Assembly: GCA_043807885.1 (NCBI GenBank)
Contig: JAZDFN010000019.1
Location: forward strand, 1-48,301
DNA from: a bacterium
GTDB taxonomy: Bacteria; Patescibacteriota; Patescibacteriia; UBA2591; JAZDFN01
DNA length: 48,301 nt
Reading direction: 5' to 3'
Shown here in pieces: positions 2 to 42,223 of the stretch. A model generated the notes under the pieces. It saw nothing but the letters and a program-made list of their open reading frames with translations, ran no database searches and had not been told where the DNA came from. Position numbers and translations under genes: made by a program. The first letter of the stretch is position 1. Each line of letters starts with the position of its first letter.

Positions 2-592
2 GTTGCTGACCAGAACAAATACTATCCGGAAGCGCAAATAATCTCAAATTCTAAATGGCCCTATGATGGCGCAGTTGACGCCTGCGGCAATTCTTTGGAC
101 GGCAACGACGCGGTCAGCCGGGGACCGAATAAATTGGGCGGTGACAAAAAAGCCCAAGGTCAAGGCGTTGATGATTTCTTCTGGACTTTTTTCACCAATG
201 ACAAAATTGATTTGGCTCCGCCGAAAATTGATACAGTTGACCCGGCGCCAGATGCCTCTGGCATCGGCAAGGACAAAATCATCGACATCCTTTTCAGCAA
301 GCTGATGATGAAGAGCACTTTGAAGCCGGGGTGCAAATATCAAGACCAGGACGGCAAGGATATCTGCTACATTTCGCTTTTAGACGACAAGGTCGGCTAC
401 TGGATCAACGCCTATGACGAGACCGGAAAAACCCATGCCCAAATCGACCACACAGATTTTCTGGTCGGCACGGACTACAGCGTGGAAGTCACTTCCGAAG
501 TCAAGGATATTTTCCAGAACTGCTATCAACCCTGTTGCGGACCGACTGGCGGAGAAGCCACGCCCTTGCCGAGCGCCAACCAGTGCCAATGA
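2..592 (+). CDS. C-terminal part of a gene that begins upstream of the window; hypothetical extracellular Cys-containing protein
   Basis: Frame 2 has no stop from base 2 to TGA 590-592, so the 95..592 track ORF is only the tail from an internal TTG. Ends CYQPCCGPTGGE...NQCQ. No family recognised. Confidence 0.5.
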   Translation, partial: VADQNKYYPEAQIISNSKWPYDGAVDACGNSLDGNDAVSRGPNKLGGDKKAQGQGVDDFFWTFFTNDKIDLAPPKIDTVDPAPDASGIGKDKIIDILFSKLMMKSTLKPGCKYQDQDGKDICYISLLDDKVGYWINAYDETGKTHAQIDHTDFLVGTDYSVEVTSEVKDIFQNCYQPCCGPTGGEATPLPSANQCQ

Positions 593-681: not shown

Positions 682-3600
682 ATGACAGATTTAATGGCAA
701 ATAAAAATAAAAAACTTTTTTTCGTCTGGCTGCCAATGATTTTGGCCGGGTTTGTTTTTTCCGCCCTGCCGGCTTGGGGCGCGGATTTTGGTTTGAGCCA
801 AATTGGCAATGCCATTGGTCTGGGGGGCGATGACCCGCGGGTGATGATCGCCCGCATCATCAACATCGCTTTGGGGTTTCTGGGCGTCATTGCTTTGGGG
901 TTTGTCCTTTATGCCGGCTTCCTTTGGCTGACTTCGGCCGGCGACGAGGAGAAGATAAACAAGGCCAAGAAAATTTTGATCAGCGCGGTCGTTGGCTTGG
1001 CCATCATTCTTTCCGCTTGGGGCATCACTTTGTTTGTTTTGCAAAAATTGGGCGCGGTCACCGGCGTTAACATCAACGGGGGCGGCGACGACAATGGCGA
1101 CGGCAACGGACCGCCGGCCAGCGCTTTGTTGGTCAAGAGTATTACGCCCCAAGGCGAAGTCCAGATTTGCAATCCGGTGGCGAGGATAAAGTTCAACAAG
1201 AGCATTGATCCCAATACGGTTGAAGGCAATATCATCATCAGCGCCAACAGCTCCGCCGGCTGGCGGACGATTGCCGGCACTTTGAAAATTGACGGCGCTT
1301 GGGTGGAGTTTAGGCCGAACAGCGATTGCCCGGCGCCTTATGGCGACAAGAAATGCTGGCAGTTCAATGATGACCCGACGACGGAATATTCAATCAATGT
1401 TTCTAACGGCGTTAAAGCCGCCGATGGCAGTTCTCTCTGGTGCGGTATCGGCTATGAATGCAATGGCAGTTTCACGATTTTGCAGGGCTGTTTTGTCGAC
1501 GCCAGCAGTCCGATTGTCCGAATGACCTATCCTTTTAACGGCCAGCCGATTTGCAGCGATGGCACCGCTGTCAAAGCCTTAGCTAAAGACGATACAGGCA
1601 TTGGCCGGGTGGATTTTTATGTGGACAATAATTATTTGGACGGCGACGCGCCAAGCGAAGCCAATTCAGAATCTTTTGAAGCCGAGGTTTGGTGGGAAAC
1701 CGGCGGATTGGCCATTGGTTCCAGCCACAAGCTGAAGGCCCAAGCTTTTGATTTGGATGACAATAACGCCTGGTCGAAAGAAACGTCGGTTAAGATTTTT
1801 CCGGCCCATTGCTGCAATGGTGTCCAAGACAGCGGCGAAACCGGAATTGATTGCGGCGGCGAATGCCTGGCTTGCACAGGCGATGATTGCGACAGCGGCG
1901 ATGATAATTTGGATACTTGCGTCCAGCCCGATCATCAGCAATGTATCTCCCAGTATTGCCGGGCGGACAATTGTTCCTGCTTGGCCCTGCCTTTGATTAC
2001 AGATGTCAATCCGATGGATGGCGCTTTCGGCAACTTGATTACGATTTGGGGCCAGGATTTTGGCCAAGAAGCGGGCAAAGTAATATTTTTAGGCGGAGAC
2101 GAAAATGAAAATTGTCTGGGTCTGGCGCCGAAGTCGGTTAACAGCGCTTGTACTGATTATTGGCAAAATGACCAAATTATCATCGTGGTACCCAGTTGCG
2201 GCCAGACCGGACCGATAAAGGTAGTGACGAATGTCGGCTTGTATGACCGGACTGATGATTGGCGCGGGCCGGATTTGGGCGATTTTGAAATCAATGATAT
2301 TGTCCGGCCGGGCCTTTGCTTGTTGGATCCCAGCCAAGGCCGTTTTAATGATGCCATTACTTTGCAAGGCATTAATTTTGGCGCCCAAGCCAAGCAGGTT
2401 TGGTTCGGCAATCCCTTGGGCAAAAACAAAATTAAAGCCCAGGCAATCAATAATTGGTCTAACCAGACCATTACGGCAGTCGTGCCCAATTTGAAATCCG
2501 GCAAAGTGCCGGTCTACGCGGAAGCTTTTAGCGGGCAATTCAGCAATGGCGTTAATTTTAAAGTCAGCTCAACCGACGCTGGTCAGAAAACACCCTGTGA
2601 CAGCAACCCGGGCACCAGCCAGTGCGATGCTGATAGCGACTTGTGTCCGGCTGGCGAATTTTGTGATTCAAATACTTGTTTGTGCGCAGTCGGCGATGGC
2701 AATGACGGGAATCCGCCAGCCGGCGGAGAATATTGCGACGCTGATGCCAATAATCCTGGCTGCCAAACCGATGTTAATTTATGTTCAACGGCCAAGCCCT
2801 TCTGCGACCAATTGTCCTGCGAGTGCCAGCCCTATCAGGACTGCAGTTATGTTTGGTCTTTTACTACGGCCGAAAGGACGCTTTGCGACAGTGATTCGGC
2901 CAACCCCGGCTGTCAGGCGGACCGCAACCTTTGCGCCGAAGGCGAAGAATGCCGGGAAGATTGTTTTTGCTATGCCGAAGAAACCCCGCCGACTCCGCCC
3001 GACGGCGAAGTCGAATACTGCGACAGCGACGCCCAAAATCCGGGTTGCCAAGCCGACGCGGATATGTGTTCGGCGGAACAGCCTTTCTGCGACCAATTGT
3101 CTTGTGAGTGCCAGCCCTATCAGAGTTGTAAATATGTCTGGACTTTCAAAACCGGCAGTCCTTTCGTCATTGAAGAATGCGTTGATTACAACAAAGAAGG
3201 CGCGCCTTCGCCCAGCCCCACGCCTTGGAGCAAAGTGAGCAGTAATGTTTGCATTAATGTTCTGGTTTCCGCCCGCTTCAGTGAGCCGGTGGATGAACAG
3301 TCGGTAAAGAACAACGTCAAAGTCCAGATTGACTGTTCCGGCGCCAAATCAGAAGCCGATTGTCCGGCTGAAGGCGATGGTTGTTATTGGGCCAACAGCC
3401 AGTGCGTTTCCCAGCCGTTGGCCGGCTATGTCCATGTCTATGAATGGGATACGGACAACCATTACGGCGCTTTTAAGTTCTACAAAGGAGTTATTAATTC
3501 TAGCGACCGGAGCGAAAATTATTTGCCTAACACTAAATACCAAGTCACTTTGATTGGCGGGCCCAATGGCATCAAAACCAAGGCCGGCGTGCCTTTGATT

Positions 3601-6600
3601 GACGACTATATCTGGTCATTTCAAACTCGGGATTCCAACCAGCTTTGCAAGTTGGACAAAGTGAAAGTGGTGCCGTTTAATGCCAAACTGGTCATCAAGG
3701 ACGCTTTGCAGAATTATTTAGGTGAAACCTACACCAAAGAAGATTCTTGCTTACTGCTTAATTCTGACAGCTATGATTGGGATTGGTGGTCGGAAGACGC
3801 AAGCAAAGGTAAGATTGACGATCAGGATAGCGATCCGAAAAACAGCAAGAACAATGTTCGGGCGGTTGGCGAATCTCCTTCGCCGATCAAGATCTATGCC
3901 CGCATTGAGTCGGAGAAAAAAGAAGGCTATGGCAATTTGATTATTGAGTTTGCCAATTTCGTGCTTTTGAAGCATTGGCCTTGCGGAGACGCCAATGGTC
4001 AGAACGTTTGTCCTAATGCTTTGATCGGCGCTGAATTCAACCGCCAAGTTGACCGGAAATCTTTCGGCGTCAATGAAAGCGACGGGTCGGTTAGTGGCGA
4101 CAGCATCCAAATTTATTCTTGCGACAAAGGGTCTGACTGCAACTTGAACATCTTGCCTTTCAGTAAAGGCAGTAATTGGGATAGAGAACAAAACTTGCGC
4201 GCTGATTTCTTTTTTGACGCCGGCACGGGCAATGAAGAAATCAATGTTTCCACGACGCCGTCGCTTTTGAAGATCGGCAATTATTACCGCATTATTTTCA
4301 AAGATAACAGCCAAGGCATCAAAAATTATTTGGGTGAAGAACTGGACAATCCCAACTATGACAGCGCTCGGGGCGAAGAGTGCGAAGGGGAGAGCGCTAT
4401 TTGCAAAAATTGTCTGAACCAAGGTTTGACTGTCGCTTGTTCGGAAACAACCAAAACCAATTGTTGCGGGGACAAGATCAAGGAGCCGGGCGAAGATTGC
4501 GACGATGGCAACAACTATCCGGGCGACGGCTGTTCCAATGTTTGTTTGAACGAAGGCTCTAATTTCAAAAATCAATGCGGCAATGGCAATGACCAGGATT
4601 TGGGCGAAGATCCGGGTTGCGACACGGCCAATGGTATTTTCTCGGGTTGCAACGATCATTGCGTTTTCAAGGGCTCTTTTGCTCCGGCGATTTGCGGGGA
4701 CGGCGTTGTTGACAAAGCTCATGGCGAAGAATGCGACCAGAAAGGCCAAGCCACTAATGGCGACGGCTGTTCTGGCAAGTGCTTGTTCGAGGGTATTATC
4801 AAAAATGAAGAAGGAGAAGAAGATCCAACCAAATCAACCAAAGAATGCGAACCCAACACCCAAGGCTGTGATGCCAAGGGCGTGCATCTGGGCACTTTGC
4901 CCAAGGTAACCTGCGGGAACGGCAAGATTGAAATTGGCGAAGATTGCGATGATGGTAATACGATTAAAGGCGACGGTTGTTCTGATTTCTGTCTGAATGA
5001 AGGTTCAAACAAGTTCTGGGGCAGTACTTGTGGCAACAAGGTCGTGGAAGGCCCGGAACTGGACAGTTATTCCTGGTATTTCAGGGTCAAAGAAACTCCC
5101 GGTCTCTGCCAATTGTCTAGCGTTGATGTCAAACCGGAGAAAATGACCGCTGAAGTCAATGAAACAATCAATTATCAGGCCGACGCTTATGGCGAAACTG
5201 ATGTTTGCGAGCCCAAAGGCCAGAAATTAAGGCCGGAAGATTATCTTTGGAATTGGTGGTCGGGCGACGCGAAAAAAGCGGTTGTTAATCCTTCAAGCAA
5301 TAATCAAACTGCGGTAATGACCATCGCGGAAACGGGCGATACTCCGGTTAAAGTTTTTGCTTCAGTTAAAGATAAATCCGGCGATAACGCCAAAAATGAT
5401 TTCGGCGAATTGTCCATTGTCGGCCAAGGCATCAAAGGCGGGGAATTGTGCGAGGCAAAAAAACCGAATTATCAATATAATCCCGATGCTCCGGCTGTTT
5501 GCCCGGTGGAAGTGCCGGATTGCGGTCCGGTTGAGATTTATCAGTGTTTGGTCGGTGATACTACCGGTGATGTTTGCAAAACTTATGATGATTGCCCTCG
5601 TTGTTGCTGTGAACCCAAGAAAAAATACAAGAACTTGACTTGTGAGCCAGACCAGGATGAATGCACTGGCTCAACCCGGGGCCTTTATTGCGGTTGCCAA
5701 AAAGACCTTGATTGCACCGAGGTTTATGGCGATAAATACGGCTGCGGATTTAGCGACCCGGCCAAATGCTGCCATCCTCGGCCGTGGATTACTGATTGCG
5801 ACCCGACTTTGGAGTTTACCGGCGTTCAATCGAGCGAAGATACTTGGTGCAAGAGCGGCAATAATAATTTCTGCCCCAATGGCTTAATCAAGGTTTATTT
5901 CGACCAAGTAATCAAACCCGAATCACTGGCCAACAATAATTTTGCAGTGGTTACTCGGTTAATCACCAAAGACGACGGAGAGTGTCCTAAAGGGACGATT
6001 CCGACCGGCCAGATTGATTTAGCTTTTAATAATTCTGAAGAAAATGGTTTTTTTAGCCGGGCTTTGGGCGCCCTGAATGATGGTTTGAATAAATTGTTTG
6101 GTCGTGAGGCCAAAGCGGAAATGGTTGAATTTTGCCAAGTAACCGGCGATATTTACGCTTATCAGTTGTCGGCCAAAGATGAAACAACCGAAGAAGTTAA
6201 ATATTTTACGGAAGCGATTTTCAGCCCTGATGAGAATTTGGAGTTCAGTCGGGTTTATTATGCTTTGGTGGCCGGTGATGATTTAGGAACAGGCGATGAG
6301 GGCGAGGGCGTGGTCAGCATTAAGGGTGTGGGTATGGATTTAAAAGAATCATCCAATGGCGGATGGGTGCCGGCCGGTCAAAAATCAGGCAACAACTTTT
6401 TTTGGTCATTCACGACCAAGGCCGATTTTTGTCCGATTGATCGCGTCAATGTTTACATTAACGGTAATGAAAAGCCGGCGATTTCCGATTTGTTCAATTG
6501 CACCAAGGATGATTGCCCCGACGACTTTAGCCAAAGCAAAACCGGCAACCAGCATCATTACTATGCCGAAGCGTTAGACAAGGACGGCCAAGAAATTAAA

Positions 6601-7995
6601 GCTGATTTTAAGTGGCAGGAGATTGATGCCGGTGGAGCGATTGAGGTAGGGGAGGTAGATACTGACCAACCCGACCAGAAAATAAGATATATTACGGCCA
6701 ATCCCAAAGAAGACGCCCAGGCCTATCTGGATGTTATTGCCAGCGAGGACTTTGCCAACAGCACGGCCAACCAGCTGATTGACGTCCGGGTTTTTGACTG
6801 CGCCAATCCTTGGCCGGCTTTGCCGGATGATATTTATTCTTGGCAGCCGTGGCAGGACGATGTTACCAATTTTCAATTTTATTACTGCCGCGACCGAGGC
6901 GCGATTGGCACAAGTGATGATTTACCGGCCTTGGCTAATCCGCCAGTCATTGTCAATGGTACGGGTGAAATCTTAAAAGAATTTCTTTTTGCTGTTTTAG
7001 ATAGCGACGTGGTTGGTTTCCGAGTTTTGAAAAATGCCGGCAAAAACCAAAAAATTTGTTCCAATGATTGCCAAAAGAGCTGCCTTGACGATACTGAGTG
7101 CAGTGGCGGTTATTGCCTCCGGCAATTTGCTCATTTATCACCTGGACTTTGGTATACTTTCCCTTGCAATGTGCCGGACCCGGGCAGTCCCCAGTCATTG
7201 GAAGTTGACGGCTACAAAGCCGTGCGCGATGGCCGGACAACTTATGCTTCCGCGGCCAATTCCACGCCCGCTGAAATTTTCACCAATATCTATCTGGTTT
7301 CTTACAATGAAGGCGCCAAGGCCGATACCCAAACCATCTACAACCAGATTCTTGGCCATTGGCATTTTAATACCAATTTGGATGATTATCGCGCCTGCCG
7401 GGATGCTGACGGCGAATTGTTGACTTTCGTGCCTTGCGATAATGATTTGGTTTGCCAACCATTGGGTTATTGCGACGCTCGGAAAACCAAAATTACCCGC
7501 GATACCATCCGCTTGGGCGATTTGAATGATCTGGCGCATCTTTTGGAGGCCTATTACAAAAAGAAAGAAGCCAAAGAAGGCCAGGGCGATTATCCGGCCT
7601 TGGCTGGCGGCAGTTATATTAAGGGCTTGTCCACCAGCAAATGGCCGATTTCTTGGGGTTTAACTTTGAAAGGCGAATTAGGCAAGGATTTGCCTCTTGA
7701 CCCGCTTAATCTTTTTGGCGCGGATTGCTCGTTAAAAGACGGTTATGAGGCCTCAACTTGCTGGAATGAAACCAAAAAAGATTTTTATTTGTCGCCTTAT
7801 TCCGATATTTATATTTATAAATATTTTCCCCTGACAACATCAGCGCCGGTGAATTACCATCTCTGTGCGGAATTGGAGTTTAGAGGAGATGGTTTTGGCT
7901 TGCATAATATGGCTGACCAGTGGTTCGGCTTGCCCGATTCCGCGGTTTGGGACTATAAACAGCTTAAATTCGGCCTTAGCCAATGCTATCCTTAA
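682..7995 (+). CDS. Giant (2437 aa) Cys-rich cell-surface protein with N-terminal TrbC/VirB2-like (T4SS_pilin-type) membrane head, Ig-like/IPT-TIG-like domains and Cys-rich repeats
   Basis: Uninterrupted 7.3 kb ORF. The N-terminus has a signal-like segment plus two hydrophobic helices around LYAGFLWLTSAGDEEKINKAKK. IPT/TIG-like segments: ITDVNPMDGAFGNLITIWGQDFG and LLDPSQGRFNDAITLQGINFG. Also CCNGVQDSGETGIDCGGEC, CDxDxxNPGCQxD modules and CGxGxxExGExCDDGNxxxGDGCSxxC repeats. Alternative start ATG 694 (MANKNKK). Confidence 0.85.
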   Translation: MTDLMANKNKKLFFVWLPMILAGFVFSALPAWGADFGLSQIGNAIGLGGDDPRVMIARIINIALGFLGVIALGFVLYAGFLWLTSAGDEEKINKAKKILISAVVGLAIILSAWGITLFVLQKLGAVTGVNINGGGDDNGDGNGPPASALLVKSITPQGEVQICNPVARIKFNKSIDPNTVEGNIIISANSSAGWRTIAGTLKIDGAWVEFRPNSDCPAPYGDKKCWQFNDDPTTEYSINVSNGVKAADGSSLWCGIGYECNGSFTILQGCFVDASSPIVRMTYPFNGQPICSDGTAVKALAKDDTGIGRVDFYVDNNYLDGDAPSEANSESFEAEVWWETGGLAIGSSHKLKAQAFDLDDNNAWSKETSVKIFPAHCCNGVQDSGETGIDCGGECLACTGDDCDSGDDNLDTCVQPDHQQCISQYCRADNCSCLALPLITDVNPMDGAFGNLITIWGQDFGQEAGKVIFLGGDENENCLGLAPKSVNSACTDYWQNDQIIIVVPSCGQTGPIKVVTNVGLYDRTDDWRGPDLGDFEINDIVRPGLCLLDPSQGRFNDAITLQGINFGAQAKQVWFGNPLGKNKIKAQAINNWSNQTITAVVPNLKSGKVPVYAEAFSGQFSNGVNFKVSSTDAGQKTPCDSNPGTSQCDADSDLCPAGEFCDSNTCLCAVGDGNDGNPPAGGEYCDADANNPGCQTDVNLCSTAKPFCDQLSCECQPYQDCSYVWSFTTAERTLCDSDSANPGCQADRNLCAEGEECREDCFCYAEETPPTPPDGEVEYCDSDAQNPGCQADADMCSAEQPFCDQLSCECQPYQSCKYVWTFKTGSPFVIEECVDYNKEGAPSPSPTPWSKVSSNVCINVLVSARFSEPVDEQSVKNNVKVQIDCSGAKSEADCPAEGDGCYWANSQCVSQPLAGYVHVYEWDTDNHYGAFKFYKGVINSSDRSENYLPNTKYQVTLIGGPNGIKTKAGVPLIDDYIWSFQTRDSNQLCKLDKVKVVPFNAKLVIKDALQNYLGETYTKEDSCLLLNSDSYDWDWWSEDASKGKIDDQDSDPKNSKNNVRAVGESPSPIKIYARIESEKKEGYGNLIIEFANFVLLKHWPCGDANGQNVCPNALIGAEFNRQVDRKSFGVNESDGSVSGDSIQIYSCDKGSDCNLNILPFSKGSNWDREQNLRADFFFDAGTGNEEINVSTTPSLLKIGNYYRIIFKDNSQGIKNYLGEELDNPNYDSARGEECEGESAICKNCLNQGLTVACSETTKTNCCGDKIKEPGEDCDDGNNYPGDGCSNVCLNEGSNFKNQCGNGNDQDLGEDPGCDTANGIFSGCNDHCVFKGSFAPAICGDGVVDKAHGEECDQKGQATNGDGCSGKCLFEGIIKNEEGEEDPTKSTKECEPNTQGCDAKGVHLGTLPKVTCGNGKIEIGEDCDDGNTIKGDGCSDFCLNEGSNKFWGSTCGNKVVEGPELDSYSWYFRVKETPGLCQLSSVDVKPEKMTAEVNETINYQADAYGETDVCEPKGQKLRPEDYLWNWWSGDAKKAVVNPSSNNQTAVMTIAETGDTPVKVFASVKDKSGDNAKNDFGELSIVGQGIKGGELCEAKKPNYQYNPDAPAVCPVEVPDCGPVEIYQCLVGDTTGDVCKTYDDCPRCCCEPKKKYKNLTCEPDQDECTGSTRGLYCGCQKDLDCTEVYGDKYGCGFSDPAKCCHPRPWITDCDPTLEFTGVQSSEDTWCKSGNNNFCPNGLIKVYFDQVIKPESLANNNFAVVTRLITKDDGECPKGTIPTGQIDLAFNNSEENGFFSRALGALNDGLNKLFGREAKAEMVEFCQVTGDIYAYQLSAKDETTEEVKYFTEAIFSPDENLEFSRVYYALVAGDDLGTGDEGEGVVSIKGVGMDLKESSNGGWVPAGQKSGNNFFWSFTTKADFCPIDRVNVYINGNEKPAISDLFNCTKDDCPDDFSQSKTGNQHHYYAEALDKDGQEIKADFKWQEIDAGGAIEVGEVDTDQPDQKIRYITANPKEDAQAYLDVIASEDFANSTANQLIDVRVFDCANPWPALPDDIYSWQPWQDDVTNFQFYYCRDRGAIGTSDDLPALANPPVIVNGTGEILKEFLFAVLDSDVVGFRVLKNAGKNQKICSNDCQKSCLDDTECSGGYCLRQFAHLSPGLWYTFPCNVPDPGSPQSLEVDGYKAVRDGRTTYASAANSTPAEIFTNIYLVSYNEGAKADTQTIYNQILGHWHFNTNLDDYRACRDADGELLTFVPCDNDLVCQPLGYCDARKTKITRDTIRLGDLNDLAHLLEAYYKKKEAKEGQGDYPALAGGSYIKGLSTSKWPISWGLTLKGELGKDLPLDPLNLFGADCSLKDGYEASTCWNETKKDFYLSPYSDIYIYKYFPLTTSAPVNYHLCAELEFRGDGFGLHNMADQWFGLPDSAVWDYKQLKFGLSQCYP
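2593..3153 (+). repeat. Four tandem Cys-knot-like coding modules inside the giant ORF (two are close copies)
   Basis: EYCDADANNPGCQTDVNLCSTAKPFCDQLSCECQPYQDCSYVWSFTT (2728-2868) versus EYCDSDAQNPGCQADADMCSAEQPFCDQLSCECQPYQSCKYVWTFKT (3013-3153). More diverged modules PCDSNPGTSQCDADSDLCPAGEFC and LCDSDSANPGCQADRNLCAEGEEC. Confidence 0.8.
4462..5004 (+). repeat. Cys-rich CGxG...DCDDGN..GDGCS..C repeats (myxococcal cysteine-rich repeat / DUF4215-like) inside the giant ORF
   Basis: CCGDKIKEPGEDCDDGNNYPGDGCSNVCLNEG; CGDGVVDKAHGEECDQKGQATNGDGCSGKCLFEG; CGNGKIEIGEDCDDGNTIKGDGCSDFCLNEG; one degenerate copy CGNGNDQDLGEDPGCD... Confidence 0.7.
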
Positions 7996-8003
7996 TAGCG
8001 GTA

Positions 8004-8033
8004 TTGGCCAAGTTTGATTATTTGAGGTATAAT
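8004..8033 (+). promoter_or_regulatory. Candidate sigma70-type promoter for the 8070 gene
   Basis: TTGGCC (8004-8009), 18-nt spacer, TATAAT (8028-8033), about 37 nt upstream of ATG 8070. Confidence 0.35.
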
Positions 8034-8069: not shown

Positions 8070-8792
8070 ATGTTTGACCAACCTAACCCCATGGCGCCTA
8101 AAGAACCAACCTTGCCGCCTGATAATCCAGGATTGGTAGAGGATATTTTTGATTCTTTTGAGCCAGTCGGCGCTGGCGCGCCGCTCGCTGTTCCGCCGGG
8201 CGGAATTGTCGGAAACGGAATCAATCCGCCCGCTGGCGGACCGCCGGCCGGAAGTGGTTTATCTTCAAATAATTCGGGACCTTTTTCTTCAGGATCGGCG
8301 CCGAAAGCGCCTCAAACCCGGCCGGGCTTGATTGCCAACAAAAAATTCTTCATCATTGGCCTGTCAGCCGTCGTCATCGTGGTTTTGGGAGTTGGCGGTT
8401 GGCTGGCTTACGCCCGATTTTTTCAGGCCCGGCCGGAAGTAACCGTCAACCTTAATCAAGCGCCAATTAATGAGGCGGTTAACGCCAACCAGAATCTCAA
8501 TTTGGAAAACCCGGAAGCCAATTTGAATATCAATGGGCCGGAACTGGCCGGTCCAATTGATACTGACGCTGACGGCTTGACTGACGAAGAAGAAGCTCGG
8601 ATTAATACTGACCCAACTTCGGTTGATACGGACAATGATGGCTTGTTTGACCGGGAAGAGATCAAAGTTTACAAAACCGACCCCAGCGACGCGGATACGG
8701 ACGATGACGGCTATTTGGACGGCGCGGAAGCCAGGGCCGGCTATGATCCGAGAGGCCCGGGTAAATTATTCAGCGTGGAAACCGCCCAATAA
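8070..8792 (+). CDS. Membrane-anchored protein with Pro-rich N-terminus, one TM helix, Asn-rich linker and acidic thrombospondin-type-3-like Ca-binding repeats
   Basis: FFIIGLSAVVIVVLGVGGWLAY TM segment; DTDADGLTDEEE, DTDNDGLFDREE and DADTDDDGYLDGAE repeats. Confidence 0.75.
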   Translation: MFDQPNPMAPKEPTLPPDNPGLVEDIFDSFEPVGAGAPLAVPPGGIVGNGINPPAGGPPAGSGLSSNNSGPFSSGSAPKAPQTRPGLIANKKFFIIGLSAVVIVVLGVGGWLAYARFFQARPEVTVNLNQAPINEAVNANQNLNLENPEANLNINGPELAGPIDTDADGLTDEEEARINTDPTSVDTDNDGLFDREEIKVYKTDPSDADTDDDGYLDGAEARAGYDPRGPGKLFSVETAQ

Positions 8793-8801
8793 TTACGAAT
8801 T

Positions 8802-9761
8802 ATGAATCAAGAACCGAAAAATAACCTTGGTCAACCGTCGACGGCCCCGCCGGTCGGCGGGCAGGTAGGCGGACCGCTGGACATTCATGTTATGCCCCAA
8901 AAGTTTTTGGCGGCTGATAGCGCCGGCCGGAAGGCCAAAATAATCGGCCTGATCATCATCATCAGCGTTTTAGGCGTGGCCTTGACCGCGGCCGCTTTTT
9001 ATTTGAATTACACTTTGCAGAATTCCAAGACCACCCTGCCGGCCGGCAAGCAGGCCAACGCCAATCAGGTTAGCCAGAAAAACGCTAAGGTTAACCAAAC
9101 AAATCAAAAAACCGCCAATCAAAATACCAATGTTAACCAAAATGAGGCGGTTGATGCCAATCTCAACAGCAATGTTAAGGCCAATGGAGAAGAGCCGATA
9201 GTTTTGTCGTCTGGACGGGACAGTGATAATGACGGTCTGACTGACGAGGAAGAAATCCTTTATGCCACCGGTATCAATAATGATGATATTGACGGCGACG
9301 GTTATTCAGACGGCGCTGAAGTCGTTAATCTTTACAACCCGACCGGCGCCGGCCAGCTGATCAGCTCGGCGGCGGTTGATGTTTTCACCAGCTCGGCTTT
9401 TGACTATTCCGTGCTCTATCCAATTAATTGGACTTTGGAAGTGACCGAAGTTGCCGGGCAGGAAGTGATGTTTACCAGCCAGACCGGCGAATTCGTCAAA
9501 ATTTTTGTCCAGGACAATCCCCAGCAGCTTTCAGCCAAAGATTGGTATTGGGCGCAATGGCCGGATTCGCCGGATTCCAGCCCGCTTGAACAAATTGAAG
9601 TTAACGGACTGGAAGGGGTTTGGAGTTTTGACAAATTGAACGTTTATCTGGCTAAAGACGATAAGCTCTATGTGATCGCCTATAATATCGGTGAACGGCC
9701 AACCGCTAACTTTCAGACCACTTTTCAAATGATGGTCAAAAGTTTTGAATTAAAGGATTAG
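8802..9761 (+). CDS. Membrane-anchored protein, same architecture as the 8070 gene plus a globular C-terminal domain
   Basis: TM segment IIGLIIIISVLGVALTAAAFYL, N/Q-rich linker, DSDNDGLTDEEE...DIDGDGYSDGAE repeats, roughly 130-aa C-terminal domain. Confidence 0.75.
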   Translation: MNQEPKNNLGQPSTAPPVGGQVGGPLDIHVMPQKFLAADSAGRKAKIIGLIIIISVLGVALTAAAFYLNYTLQNSKTTLPAGKQANANQVSQKNAKVNQTNQKTANQNTNVNQNEAVDANLNSNVKANGEEPIVLSSGRDSDNDGLTDEEEILYATGINNDDIDGDGYSDGAEVVNLYNPTGAGQLISSAAVDVFTSSAFDYSVLYPINWTLEVTEVAGQEVMFTSQTGEFVKIFVQDNPQQLSAKDWYWAQWPDSPDSSPLEQIEVNGLEGVWSFDKLNVYLAKDDKLYVIAYNIGERPTANFQTTFQMMVKSFELKD

Positions 9762-40858: not shown

Positions 40859-42223
40859 ATGAATGCCCAAATCAAAAAAACCATCAGTTTAGGAGCGGTT
40901 TTGATTTTGGTTACGAGCGCTTTGGTTTTCCAAACGCCGACGGCCAGCGCCGTTCAAGCCGGGGATCTGGTGAAGATCCCGGGCAATACCGCCGTCTATT
41001 ACATCGGGGCTGACAACAAGCGCTATGTTTTTCCGCACTTCAGCGTCTATGACACCTGGTATCAGGATTATTCCCAAGTCAAGACCATTACTTTGGCTGA
41101 ACTGCAAACTTACGCCATTGGCGGAAACATAACGGTCAGACCGGGTACCAAACTGATCAAGATCCAGAGCGACCCGAGCGTCTATGCGGTCAGCACCAAC
41201 GGAGCGCTTCACAAGATTGATTCAGAAACCCGGGCCAAAACGCTTTACGGCGCCAATTGGGCCAAGCGGGTGATTGATGTGAGCGACGCTTTTTTCGTCA
41301 ATTACATCATGGATTCGGCAATCAGCTCCGACCAGCACCCGGACGGCACTTTGATCCAATATGATGTTCTGCCGGGCAACAAATATTTGGTTGGTTGGAA
41401 TGGCAAGAAACGGATTTTTAAGGATGATGCAACCTTCGCCCTCAATGGTTTTGTTTCAGACAATGTCATTACCACGACTTTGAATTATCCTGACAGTACC
41501 CAAATCGTTGAGAAAGAAAACACTTTGTCTGAACCAAAGGGTGTGTTTGATAAACCAATAGAAGAAACCAAGAAAATAGAAGTCGCCCAATTAATAGTGA
41601 CAACCGACCATAGCCAAATCGCCGCCAACGGCCAAGCCAAAGCGATTGTTACTGTCACCTTGAAGGATGCTAACGGCCAGATTGTTACTGATGCCAGCGA
41701 GCCGGTTTCTTTTAGTTCGAGTAATTCATTGGGGACTGTTTTGTCCACCAATTCCGCCGTGCCTTCAGCTGGTATTGCCAGTACGGTTTTAACGGCCGGC
41801 TATCAAGCCGGCGCCATTGAAGTGGTCGTCAGTTTGAATAATTTGAGTAAAGCCGTAACGATTAACATTGTTGGCGTGGATGTGGTTCAGCCGGGCGTAA
41901 CAATTATGTACGACCCTTCTTTAATATGGCCTTTATACAAAGATAGCGCCGGTTCAAACGAGGACTACACTTTGACTTGGAACAAGATAGAAAATGTCAG
42001 CATTGATTATTATATAGTTGAAGAGGCCACTAACAGCACTTTCACGGAAGGACTGGCCCAGTACACTGTTAATACCAACAGTATTACCTTAAATCACGCC
42101 TATCCGCAGACCAAAAAATATTTTTATCGCGTCAAGGGCGTCCATAATACCGTGGAGGGCTTGTGGAGCGGCAGTTTGGACGGCAATGTGGTGAATCATG
42201 AGGTGACCGGTACTGACATCTAA
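40859..42223 (+). CDS. Secreted protein with Big_1 (invasin/intimin-type Ig-like) and FN3-like domains, inserted between rpsL and rpsG
   Basis: Signal peptide [57 protein letters not shown] (Big_1-like). [21 protein letters not shown]...YFYRVKG (FN3-like). Confidence 0.75.

Follow-up and report, generated by a model that had tools for sequence, protein, structure and literature searches.

A class-wide giant gene of Patescibacteria that joins a VirB2-type pilin head to a predicted surface protein

We analysed a stretch of 48,301 nucleotides (the 48-kb window; contig JAZDFN010000019.1 of NCBI GenBank assembly GCA_043807885.1) from a metagenome-assembled genome (MAG) of the class Patescibacteriia, which comprises 621 kb in 58 contigs and is 92% complete. 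The window holds a giant gene, G (682..7995, + strand), an uninterrupted frame of 2437 codons and a stop codon, and upstream of it the 3' end of a partner gene, U (2..592, +; 196 codons, open at the contig start), which was assigned by synteny and by a Pfam match to Big_5. Both genes encode a VirB2-like pilin head, and in G this head precedes an ectodomain of about 2,300 residues. We describe here the concerted evolution of the two heads, the near-universal presence of G in its class and the readings that this pair allows.

An alternative start of G lies four codons downstream, at 694, and the public gene model has 2433 residues (P0002). A GC-rich inverted repeat (GCCTGCCTTGCC...GGTCAAGGCGGGCGGG) occupies positions 645-680 of the intergenic DNA and abuts the ATG at 682; it could influence the choice of start codon or the translation of G.

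Pilin-like heads of the giant protein and its partner

Hydropathy analysis of the G protein returned hydrophobic segments at residues 11-34, 52-88 and 94-127 only, with none past residue 127 and no C-terminal anchor. A sortase-type C-terminus (LPXTG, hydrophobic segment, charged tail) was not seen in G, which ends in ...LKFGLSQCYP. The first segment forms the hydrophobic core of a Sec-type signal peptide (residues 1-34; 682..783, +), which has a K-rich n-region and a putative cleavage site between ALPAWG and A. The other two make up a VirB2/TrbC-like two-helix hairpin (residues 52-127; 835..1062, +), in which helix 1 and helix 2 are joined by the basic loop TSAGDEEKINKAKK, and a Gly/Asp/Asn-rich, presumably flexible linker recognised from its sequence follows (residues 128-147; 1063..1122, +). 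Because the signal peptide and the hairpin are the sole hydrophobic segments, and given the basic loop between the helices, the C-terminal 2,300 or so residues should be extracellular.

The head belongs to the PF18895 (T4SS_pilin) family. Scanned as part of the whole protein, residues 56-116 scored 36.6 bits against a curated cut-off of 26.6, and the same head scored 43.3 bits in a whole-genome scan and 43.3-43.5 bits when taken alone; the head motif LYAGFLWLTSAGDEEKINKAKK lies at residues 75-96. All 23 of 23 related heads matched PF18895 above its cut-off. The canonical TrbC/VirB2 family PF04956 was matched by 7 of these 23 (best E 5e-6), and a weak TrbC match was found in the partner gene of one related locus (L015); G's own head had no PF04956 match in the Pfam search. 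A match to the mycoplasma "Mbov_0395 pilin-like conjugal transfer protein" of NCBIfam was weak (29.6 bits, below cut-off). The prepilin (class III) motif, G followed by F-T-L-x-E, is absent from the N-terminus of G and present in the true type IV pilins of the genome. Mean pairwise identity in a 23-protein alignment was 52% for the hairpin (residues 52-127), 24% for the signal peptide and 29-46% for the ectodomain blocks, so that the hairpin is the most conserved region of the giant protein and the signal peptide the least.

The partner gene U encodes a protein of about 630 residues (~634) with a VirB2-like head and Big_5 domains, and is split across two contigs in this assembly. Contig C17 carries the 5' part of U (minus strand, bases 1008-1) with lepB and hisS ahead of it, and the head encoded there matches PF18895 and is 66% identical to that of G. 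When the orthologue of U from another locus (L013) was mapped, its residues 4-356 aligned to C17:1026-1 and its residues 435-621 to positions 50-559 of the window, which leaves about 78 codons of U missing between the two contigs.

To compare the heads we used 27 genomes with both genes. Within one genome, U and G heads are 62% identical (range 42-93%), as against 47% between genomes, a value that is the same for G-G, U-U and U-G pairs. A maximum-likelihood tree groups the U head with the G head from the same genome, strongly supported, in at least 14 of the 27 genomes; mapping the U/G labels onto this tree takes 19 changes, a number no smaller than for shuffled labels. U and G heads thus evolve in concert. 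In the genome studied here the similarity between U and G is confined to the head (the BLAST alignment ends at residue 129), and the head pair shares 70% nucleotide identity, with third codon positions 52% identical. Recent gene conversion between these two heads was considered and rejected, just 39 of 72 identical residues sharing a codon; third positions that are only 52% identical argue that the match is maintained and is not the trace of a fresh conversion. From this pattern we infer that the two heads probably touch, or bind some partner in common, and heads so conserved and so matched would be expected to do more than anchor the protein passively.

Distribution and locus across the class

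A word-indexed search retrieved 59 full-length relatives of G (2,159-4,092 residues, E 1e-30 to 1e-240) from MAGs of Patescibacteria, Uhrbacteria and Falkowbacteria. Nearly all combine PF18895 with Big_5, TIG and DUF4215, and some add VWA, LamG, malectin or fn3 modules. By BLAST mapping, residues 1-640, 800-1150, 1230-1540 and 1660-2400 of G form collinear conserved blocks, with lineage-specific blocks at residues 650-800 and 1550-1650; most relatives extend 600-1,200 residues beyond the point where G ends. Their public names are merely "IPT/TIG domain-containing protein", "cysteine-rich repeat protein" or similar, under which the pilin head is invisible to database users.

A search with the 135-residue head alone against 1.84 billion representative proteins gave 29,300 matches at a threshold of E<=1e-3, of which 6,500 also passed E<=1e-10. 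Of the top 148, 39 are longer than 2,000 residues, 17 have 1,000-2,000 and 27 have 500-1,000; in the long matches, the longest of which reaches 4834 residues, the head stands at the N-terminus, with an identity of about 50-58%. Some metagenomic proteins from this search, P0083 (1775 residues), P0071 (820 residues) and P0066 (606 residues), are tandem "polypilins" in which 17, 8 and 7 VirB2-like hairpins, respectively, follow one another head to tail in one chain, separated by short Cys-containing linkers. To our knowledge, fused pilin arrays of this type have not been described.

The C-terminal 398 residues of G served to follow the gene through the class. They matched 267 of 301 sampled class genomes and 219 of 238 genera, and were found in 251 of the 269 class genomes that are at least 90% complete, mostly in frames of 2,000-4,900 residues; in a phylum-wide sample of other classes they were found in just 1 of 58 genomes. 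This presence throughout the class and rarity outside it make G a near-universal, class-specific core gene, and not part of an accessory island; its locus is vertically inherited.

Related loci were found with a 7-sequence alignment, and 33 of them, each from a different species representative (MAGs labelled Uhrbacteria, Komeilibacteria, Falkowbacteria, Buchananbacteria or Parcubacteria), were examined for gene order. Most show, wherever flanking DNA sufficed, the order lepB - hisS - (few small genes) - U - G - tsp1 - tsp2 - ybeY - (dagK) - ftsA - ftsZ, and the window agrees with it from G onward. Many public third-party MAG records of the locus (TPA; L017, L020, L022, L023, L025-L028 and others) are titled "uncultured Gammaproteobacteria bacterium", apparently in error, the locus being specific to Patescibacteria.

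The constant place of G between lepB-hisS and ybeY-ftsA-ftsZ, and its presence in nearly every member of one class, would suit a protein that builds the envelope: an S-layer-like or wall-spanning coat or scaffold, possibly coordinated with division, that would be a housekeeping part of the envelope of this class. The ectodomain offers some likeness too, since its Ig-like domains resemble those of the S-layer proteins SbsC and Sap and Big_5 is an SbsA-type Ig domain. The adjacency to ftsAZ may however simply have been inherited, G showed no S-layer self-assembly domain, and an ectodomain that diverges fast and varies in length and modules (VWA, LamG, malectin) is more typical of interaction proteins than of coats that form a lattice. 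We consider such a role quite unlikely.

The two genes downstream of G, tsp1 (8070..8792, +; 240 residues) and tsp2 (8802..9761, +; 319 residues), each encode a Pro/Gly-rich N-terminus, one transmembrane helix, a linker (Asn-rich in tsp1, Asn/Gln-rich in tsp2) and TSP3 calcium-binding repeats, and tsp2 ends in a further C-terminal domain of about 130 residues. A promoter-like site, TTGGCC-18-TATAAT (8004..8033, +; 10/12, consensus match only), lies 3' of the stop of G and 37 nt before tsp1, which suggests that tsp1 and tsp2 may have transcription of their own. A sequence-only reading of the window that preceded this work had described G as flanked by other secreted proteins, which needs amending: the frame at 2-592 is the C-terminal end of the pilin-headed partner, and the frames at 8070 and 8802 encode single-pass TSP3 membrane proteins and not plain secreted ones. 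Its suggestion of a surface-appendage or adhesion locus fits the conserved four-gene module, which we can now describe as core to the class. It had also noted that the window contains no genes for type IV secretion system (T4SS) machinery, and domain searches of the rest of the 48 kb, which returned housekeeping and accessory genes, bear this out; such machinery is encoded elsewhere in the genome. One further surface-type gene was seen in the window, at 40859-42223, where a 454-residue Invasin_D3/Big_1 Ig-like protein is encoded between rpsL and rpsG, in a normally invariant operon.

Ectodomain modules and distal domain

The G protein contains 127 cysteines (5.2% of its residues). Since a self-BLAST showed no internal repeats at E 1e-3, repeat copies were located by motif regular expressions, and domains were assigned with Pfam and NCBIfam. 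Starting from the linker, the ectodomain opens with Ig-like domains matched by Pfam, Big_5 (residues 148-251) and Big_7 (residues 277-323; together 1123..1650, +). A Cys box with family-invariant cysteines follows (residues 376-436; 1807..1989, +), with the motif CCNG..ETGIDCGGEC at residue 377, and then two IPT/TIG domains (Pfam; residues 437-630, best stretch 549-627; 1990..2571, +), a region that BLAST shows to be internally duplicated in relatives. Three CD.D..NPGCQ Cys knots (residues 640-810; 2599..3111, +), with CD[AS]D..NPGCQ units at residues 685, 735 and 780, are lineage-specific and variable, this block being alignable in just 4-11 of 57 relatives.

A conserved stalk block comes next (residues 820-1230; 3139..4371, +), which BLAST finds kept in 43-54 of the 57 relatives. 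It had no Pfam match; by eye it appears to consist of Big_5-like and Big_2-like Ig modules. The three acidic Cys-rich repeats that follow it (residues 1231-1460; 4372..5061, +) match TIGR02232 (myxo_disulf_rpt) of NCBIfam at 63 bits against a cut-off of 20.8 and DUF4215 of Pfam in three stretches at 26.0 bits, marginally below the cut-off of 27; copies of CG..E.CD...GDGCS..C start at residues 1262, 1338 and 1411. Further stalk with Ig-like modules (residues 1461-1910; 5062..6411, +), including a variable Cys-rich block at about residues 1550-1650, leads to the distal part. Sequence and profile searches of the whole protein against the PDB gave nothing informative and no pilin.

The sequence-only reading had proposed much of this layout, and it holds up well. 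The 2437-residue Cys-rich protein is an open frame with a pilin-like head above the PF18895 cut-off, and regular expressions recovered the head motif and all the other motifs it had quoted (CDxDxxNPGCQ, the CGxG..DCDDGN..GDGCS type and CCNG..ETG.DCGG.C). The Ig-like and IPT/TIG-like domains it had named correspond to Big_5, Big_7 and two TIG domains, with T4SS_pilin, Big and TIG matched in Pfam, DUF4215 just under its cut-off and TIGR02232 above. Relatives do carry the same head on different ectodomains, at lengths of 2159-4092 and up to 4834 residues and with variable modules, and the segment of residues 1900-2437 that we ran in AlphaFold yielded modelled Ig-like and alpha/beta domains.

For this distal segment, AlphaFold2 was run with 20 orthologous segments and produced a 538-residue model with a predicted local distance difference test score (pLDDT) of 73 and a predicted template modelling score of 0.76. 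It begins with an Ig-like domain (residues 1911-2040; 6412..6801, +), for which Foldseek returned domains of S-layer SbsC and Sap, Rib and cadherin at E of about 1e-3; with the whole model as query, Foldseek against the PDB and BFVD gave Ig-like matches only, including phage fibre domains. The next domain is alpha/beta (residues 2041-2230; 6802..7371, +), carries the motif CxNPWP...YYCRD...DDLP...DAIGIRV...VDGY.A.RDGRT.Y and, at 42-45% identity across the family, is the most conserved ectodomain block after the Cys-rich repeats (46%). Its pLDDT is mostly 75-95, except in a low-confidence 27-residue insertion, and neither Pfam nor the PDB gave a consistent match. A small Cys knot in the model separates it from a 33-residue helix with short strands.

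This helix, TRDTIRLGDLNDLAHLLEAYY, opens the C-terminal domain (residues 2262-2405; 7465..7896, +), which continues with LP.DPLN and a Y.Y...Y.L.A.LE hairpin and has no hydrophobic alpha1-N. Its motifs are as in type IV pilins and pseudopilins (RD..R..D...I...L..Y, LP.DP.N, Y.Y....Y.L.A.LE). A hidden Markov model of the domain, searched against 2481 open reading frames of the same genome, had the major type IV pilin as its sole non-self match (E 5.2e-4, in two collinear pieces), and hhalign aligned the domain with this pilin at 84% probability and E 7.9e-6 over 25 columns only; one relative also matched T2SSG weakly (E 0.07). In a separate AlphaFold2 model of the domain (pLDDT 77), the 33-residue helix leads into a short strand, after which come a second helix and a beta-hairpin. 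Foldseek of this isolated domain against the PDB found no pilin (best E 2.8), and sequence and profile searches of the C-terminal block and of the pilin-like domain against the PDB gave no pilin and nothing informative. We therefore treat the resemblance of residues 2262-2405 to type IV pilins, which the motifs hint at and the fold comparison leaves unconfirmed, as a lead and not as a finding. A headless distal domain of this kind could dock onto type IV pili. Descent of the C-terminal module from a true type IV pilin gene is unsupported, stand-alone copies of the module beginning with ordinary signal peptides that have no prepilin motif.

At two loci (L102, G173:C27; L103, G134:C2) the giant is split into two adjacent genes within the C-terminal alpha/beta domain. 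The first gene has the CxNPWP...YYCRD...DDLP part, followed by further domains, and the second opens at "DAIGIRV" and has a signal peptide of its own. A distal module that is made as a separate secreted protein at these loci, together with the flexible Gly/Asp linker after the hairpin, would be compatible with a released factor, in which the hairpin would serve for export or tethering only and the ectodomain, cut in the linker, would become soluble or host-directed. Searches of G with Pfam and NCBIfam found no protease site or catalytic domain, and a head that is conserved and evolves in concert with that of U argues for a lasting role; we hold release to be very improbable.

Secretion genes, the proposed fibre and known systems

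T4SS genes were located elsewhere in the genome. Contig C43 carries VirB6-like, PrgI/VirB3-like and VirB4 genes, a second locus (C6:6311-27072) contains a 3,525-residue giant together with VirB6, VirB3-like, VirB4 and ComF genes, and VirD4-like genes are found on contigs C13 and C12. In the C6 locus the giant (4% Cys, an N-terminal transmembrane helix) lies directly upstream of a gene for a 188-residue protein, which is followed by VirB6-like (976 residues), a 687-residue protein, PrgI/VirB3-like (144 residues), TrsD-like (234 residues), VirB4 (630 residues, 58% identical to the C43 copy), a 221-residue protein and ComF; BLAST found no similarity between this giant and G. Each of five complete class genomes encodes 7-13 PF18895 proteins, among them tandem pilins of 120-210 residues, mid-size pilin-headed proteins and the U/G pair, and in one of them (G032) two mid-size pilin-headed proteins (436 and 439 residues) are encoded directly downstream of virB4. 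Pilin heads with ectodomains can thus be T4SS-linked; the U/G pair never is in the 33 loci, none of which has T4SS genes beside it.

Two further VirB2-like proteins were seen in the genome studied here: a 275-residue PF18895 protein with a Cys-rich tail (C41:10702-11529) and, in a 296-residue frame from position 2313 of C58 that the Pfam scan missed, a divergent hairpin IGGIIWLTSAGSADKIGQAR with a C-terminal extension. The idea that this genome has solely ectodomain-bearing VirB2-like proteins was dropped, as complete relatives have small pilins, and this genome is 92% complete and has the additional hairpin on C58. VirB4 co-occurrence was likewise dropped as a test between readings, since G and VirB4 are each present in nearly all genomes of the class.

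We propose, with about an even chance of being right, that G is a hairpin-anchored, disulfide-stabilised surface contact (adhesion) fibre for hosts or surfaces. The VirB2-type hairpin at the base of the fibre would be seated in the cytoplasmic membrane and be retained there in preference to being extracted into a pilus. After Sec export and cleavage of the signal peptide, helix 1 would run inward, the basic loop would be cytoplasmic and helix 2 would run back out, placing the Gly/Asp linker and the ectodomain of about 2,300 residues outside. In the ectodomain, Ig-like, TIG and Cys-rich repeat modules would make up a stalk stabilised by disulfides, with the alpha/beta domain and the pilin-like domain at its tip. 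In the membrane, the heads of U and G probably pack against each other or share a docking partner, and the two TSP3 (Ca2+-binding) membrane proteins are probably part of the same surface assembly. The proposal fits the adhesin-type modules of the ectodomain (Big_5, Big_7, TIG and Cys-rich repeats, with VWA, LamG, malectin and fn3 in relatives) and the DsbA/MdbA-like oxidoreductase encoded in the genome. Several points weigh against it. VKOR was not found in the genome, no ligand-binding domain was identified in G, and the head profile matched no solved conjugative pilin among PDB sequences. The conservation and concerted evolution of the heads fit pilus polymerisation equally well, and with VirB4 in 71 of 74 good class genomes (55-60% identity) independence from the T4SS is not established.

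These last points also speak for a true modular VirB2-type pilin, in which the T4SS (VirB4, VirB6, VirB3-like) would extract the hairpin and build a conjugative-type pilus; G, with U, would then probably be a rare tip or priming subunit beneath which the small array pilins polymerise. The head is a bona fide PF18895 member and the most constrained region of the protein, the U and G heads are kept matched, VirB4 is core to the class and the genome studied here has two T4SS loci. Complete relatives encode tandem small pilins and mid-size pilin-headed proteins, two of the latter beside virB4 in G032. The literature adds to this an array of VirB2-like pilins that is essential in Southlakia epibionticum and lies in its T4SS locus (Saccharibacteria; Wang et al. 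2023, PMC10633639), a survey of the VirB2-like pilins of Patescibacteria T4SS in which no PrgB-like adhesin was found in the candidate phyla radiation (CPR; Quinonero-Coronel et al. 2025, PMC12102498), and a precedent for adhesion modules grafted onto pilins in the modular type IV pilins (PMC8179133). Set against this, the U/G pair adjoins no T4SS genes at any of the 33 loci, a cargo of about 250 kDa on the C-terminus of a pilin is without precedent in VirB2 pili, and three good genomes (100, 98 and 92% complete) keep the giant without a VirB4 match at E 1e-3, although these are draft MAGs and the evidence is weak. We regard this alternative as possible, if doubtful.

Were this somewhat unlikely alternative true, U and G would prime or cap a conjugative-type pilus and be the first modular VirB2-type pilins, so that the "modular pilin" principle, known from type IV pili, would hold for conjugative-type pilins as well. 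An adhesin of 2,000-4,800 residues at the tip would then be the missing host-attachment part of the adhesin-less CPR T4SS, which is essential in Saccharibacteria. Patescibacteria account for a large part of the diversity of bacteria. Those in culture live fixed to host cells, by mechanisms that are largely unknown except in a small number of cultured Saccharibacteria. The T4SS of Patescibacteria proved essential in the single species in which this was tried, is unusual in having VirB2-like pilins, which a review of these loci also treats, and has no adhesin identified (PMC10633639, PMC12102498, PMC12857230). A pilin-headed pair conserved across a whole class gives the search for the contact apparatus a concrete candidate that can be tested.

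Among known systems, the closest to the proposed fibre in its head are the PF18895 pilins of Patescibacteria, which belong to the same family, have a signal peptide, two helices and a basic loop, and occur in the same phylum in genomes with monoderm-type T4SS. Unlike these pilins, which have about 120-210 residues and are often in tandem and often by virB4, G carries a 2,300-residue ectodomain, is placed in a housekeeping neighbourhood and forms a fixed pair with a second pilin-headed gene. Neither the Southlakia study nor the survey (PMC10633639, PMC12102498) was found to mention fusions of this kind. It shares with VirB2, TrbC and TraA (PF04956) the two-helix hairpin and a leader, whose cleavage in G is putative, whereas those proteins lack an ectodomain, and the head-to-tail cyclisation that some of them undergo could not take place in G. 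The modular type IV pilins PilB and PilC of Streptococcus sanguinis (Raynaud et al. 2021, PMC8179133) have the same plan of a small N-terminal pilin module, a short linker and grafted adhesion modules (vWA and lectin), which are probably displayed at the filament tip (PMC8179133). They belong to another pilin superfamily and another machine, with a class III signal peptide where G has a Sec signal peptide and a VirB2-type hairpin, and the largest modular type IV pilin quoted in that study has 860 residues (PMC8179133), while G has 2,437 and its relatives reach about 4,800.

PrgB-type and giant Ig-repeat adhesins resemble G in being large, repeat-built, adhesion-like and, as predicted for G, extracellular, and PrgB-type proteins are associated with monoderm T4SS; unlike them, G is anchored N-terminally through a pilin hairpin and lacks LPXTG. 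The myxococcal Cys-rich acidic repeat proteins (TIGR02232/DUF4215) have the same repeat that is present in three copies in G, and this stretch of about 230 residues is the only part that G has in common with proteins from outside the CPR (Myxococcota), the rest being class-specific. Full-text literature searches for T4SS_pilin, VirB2 and giant CPR proteins returned no description of pilin-headed giant proteins. What is new, relative to all of these systems, is a VirB2-type pilin module as the base of giant surface proteins.

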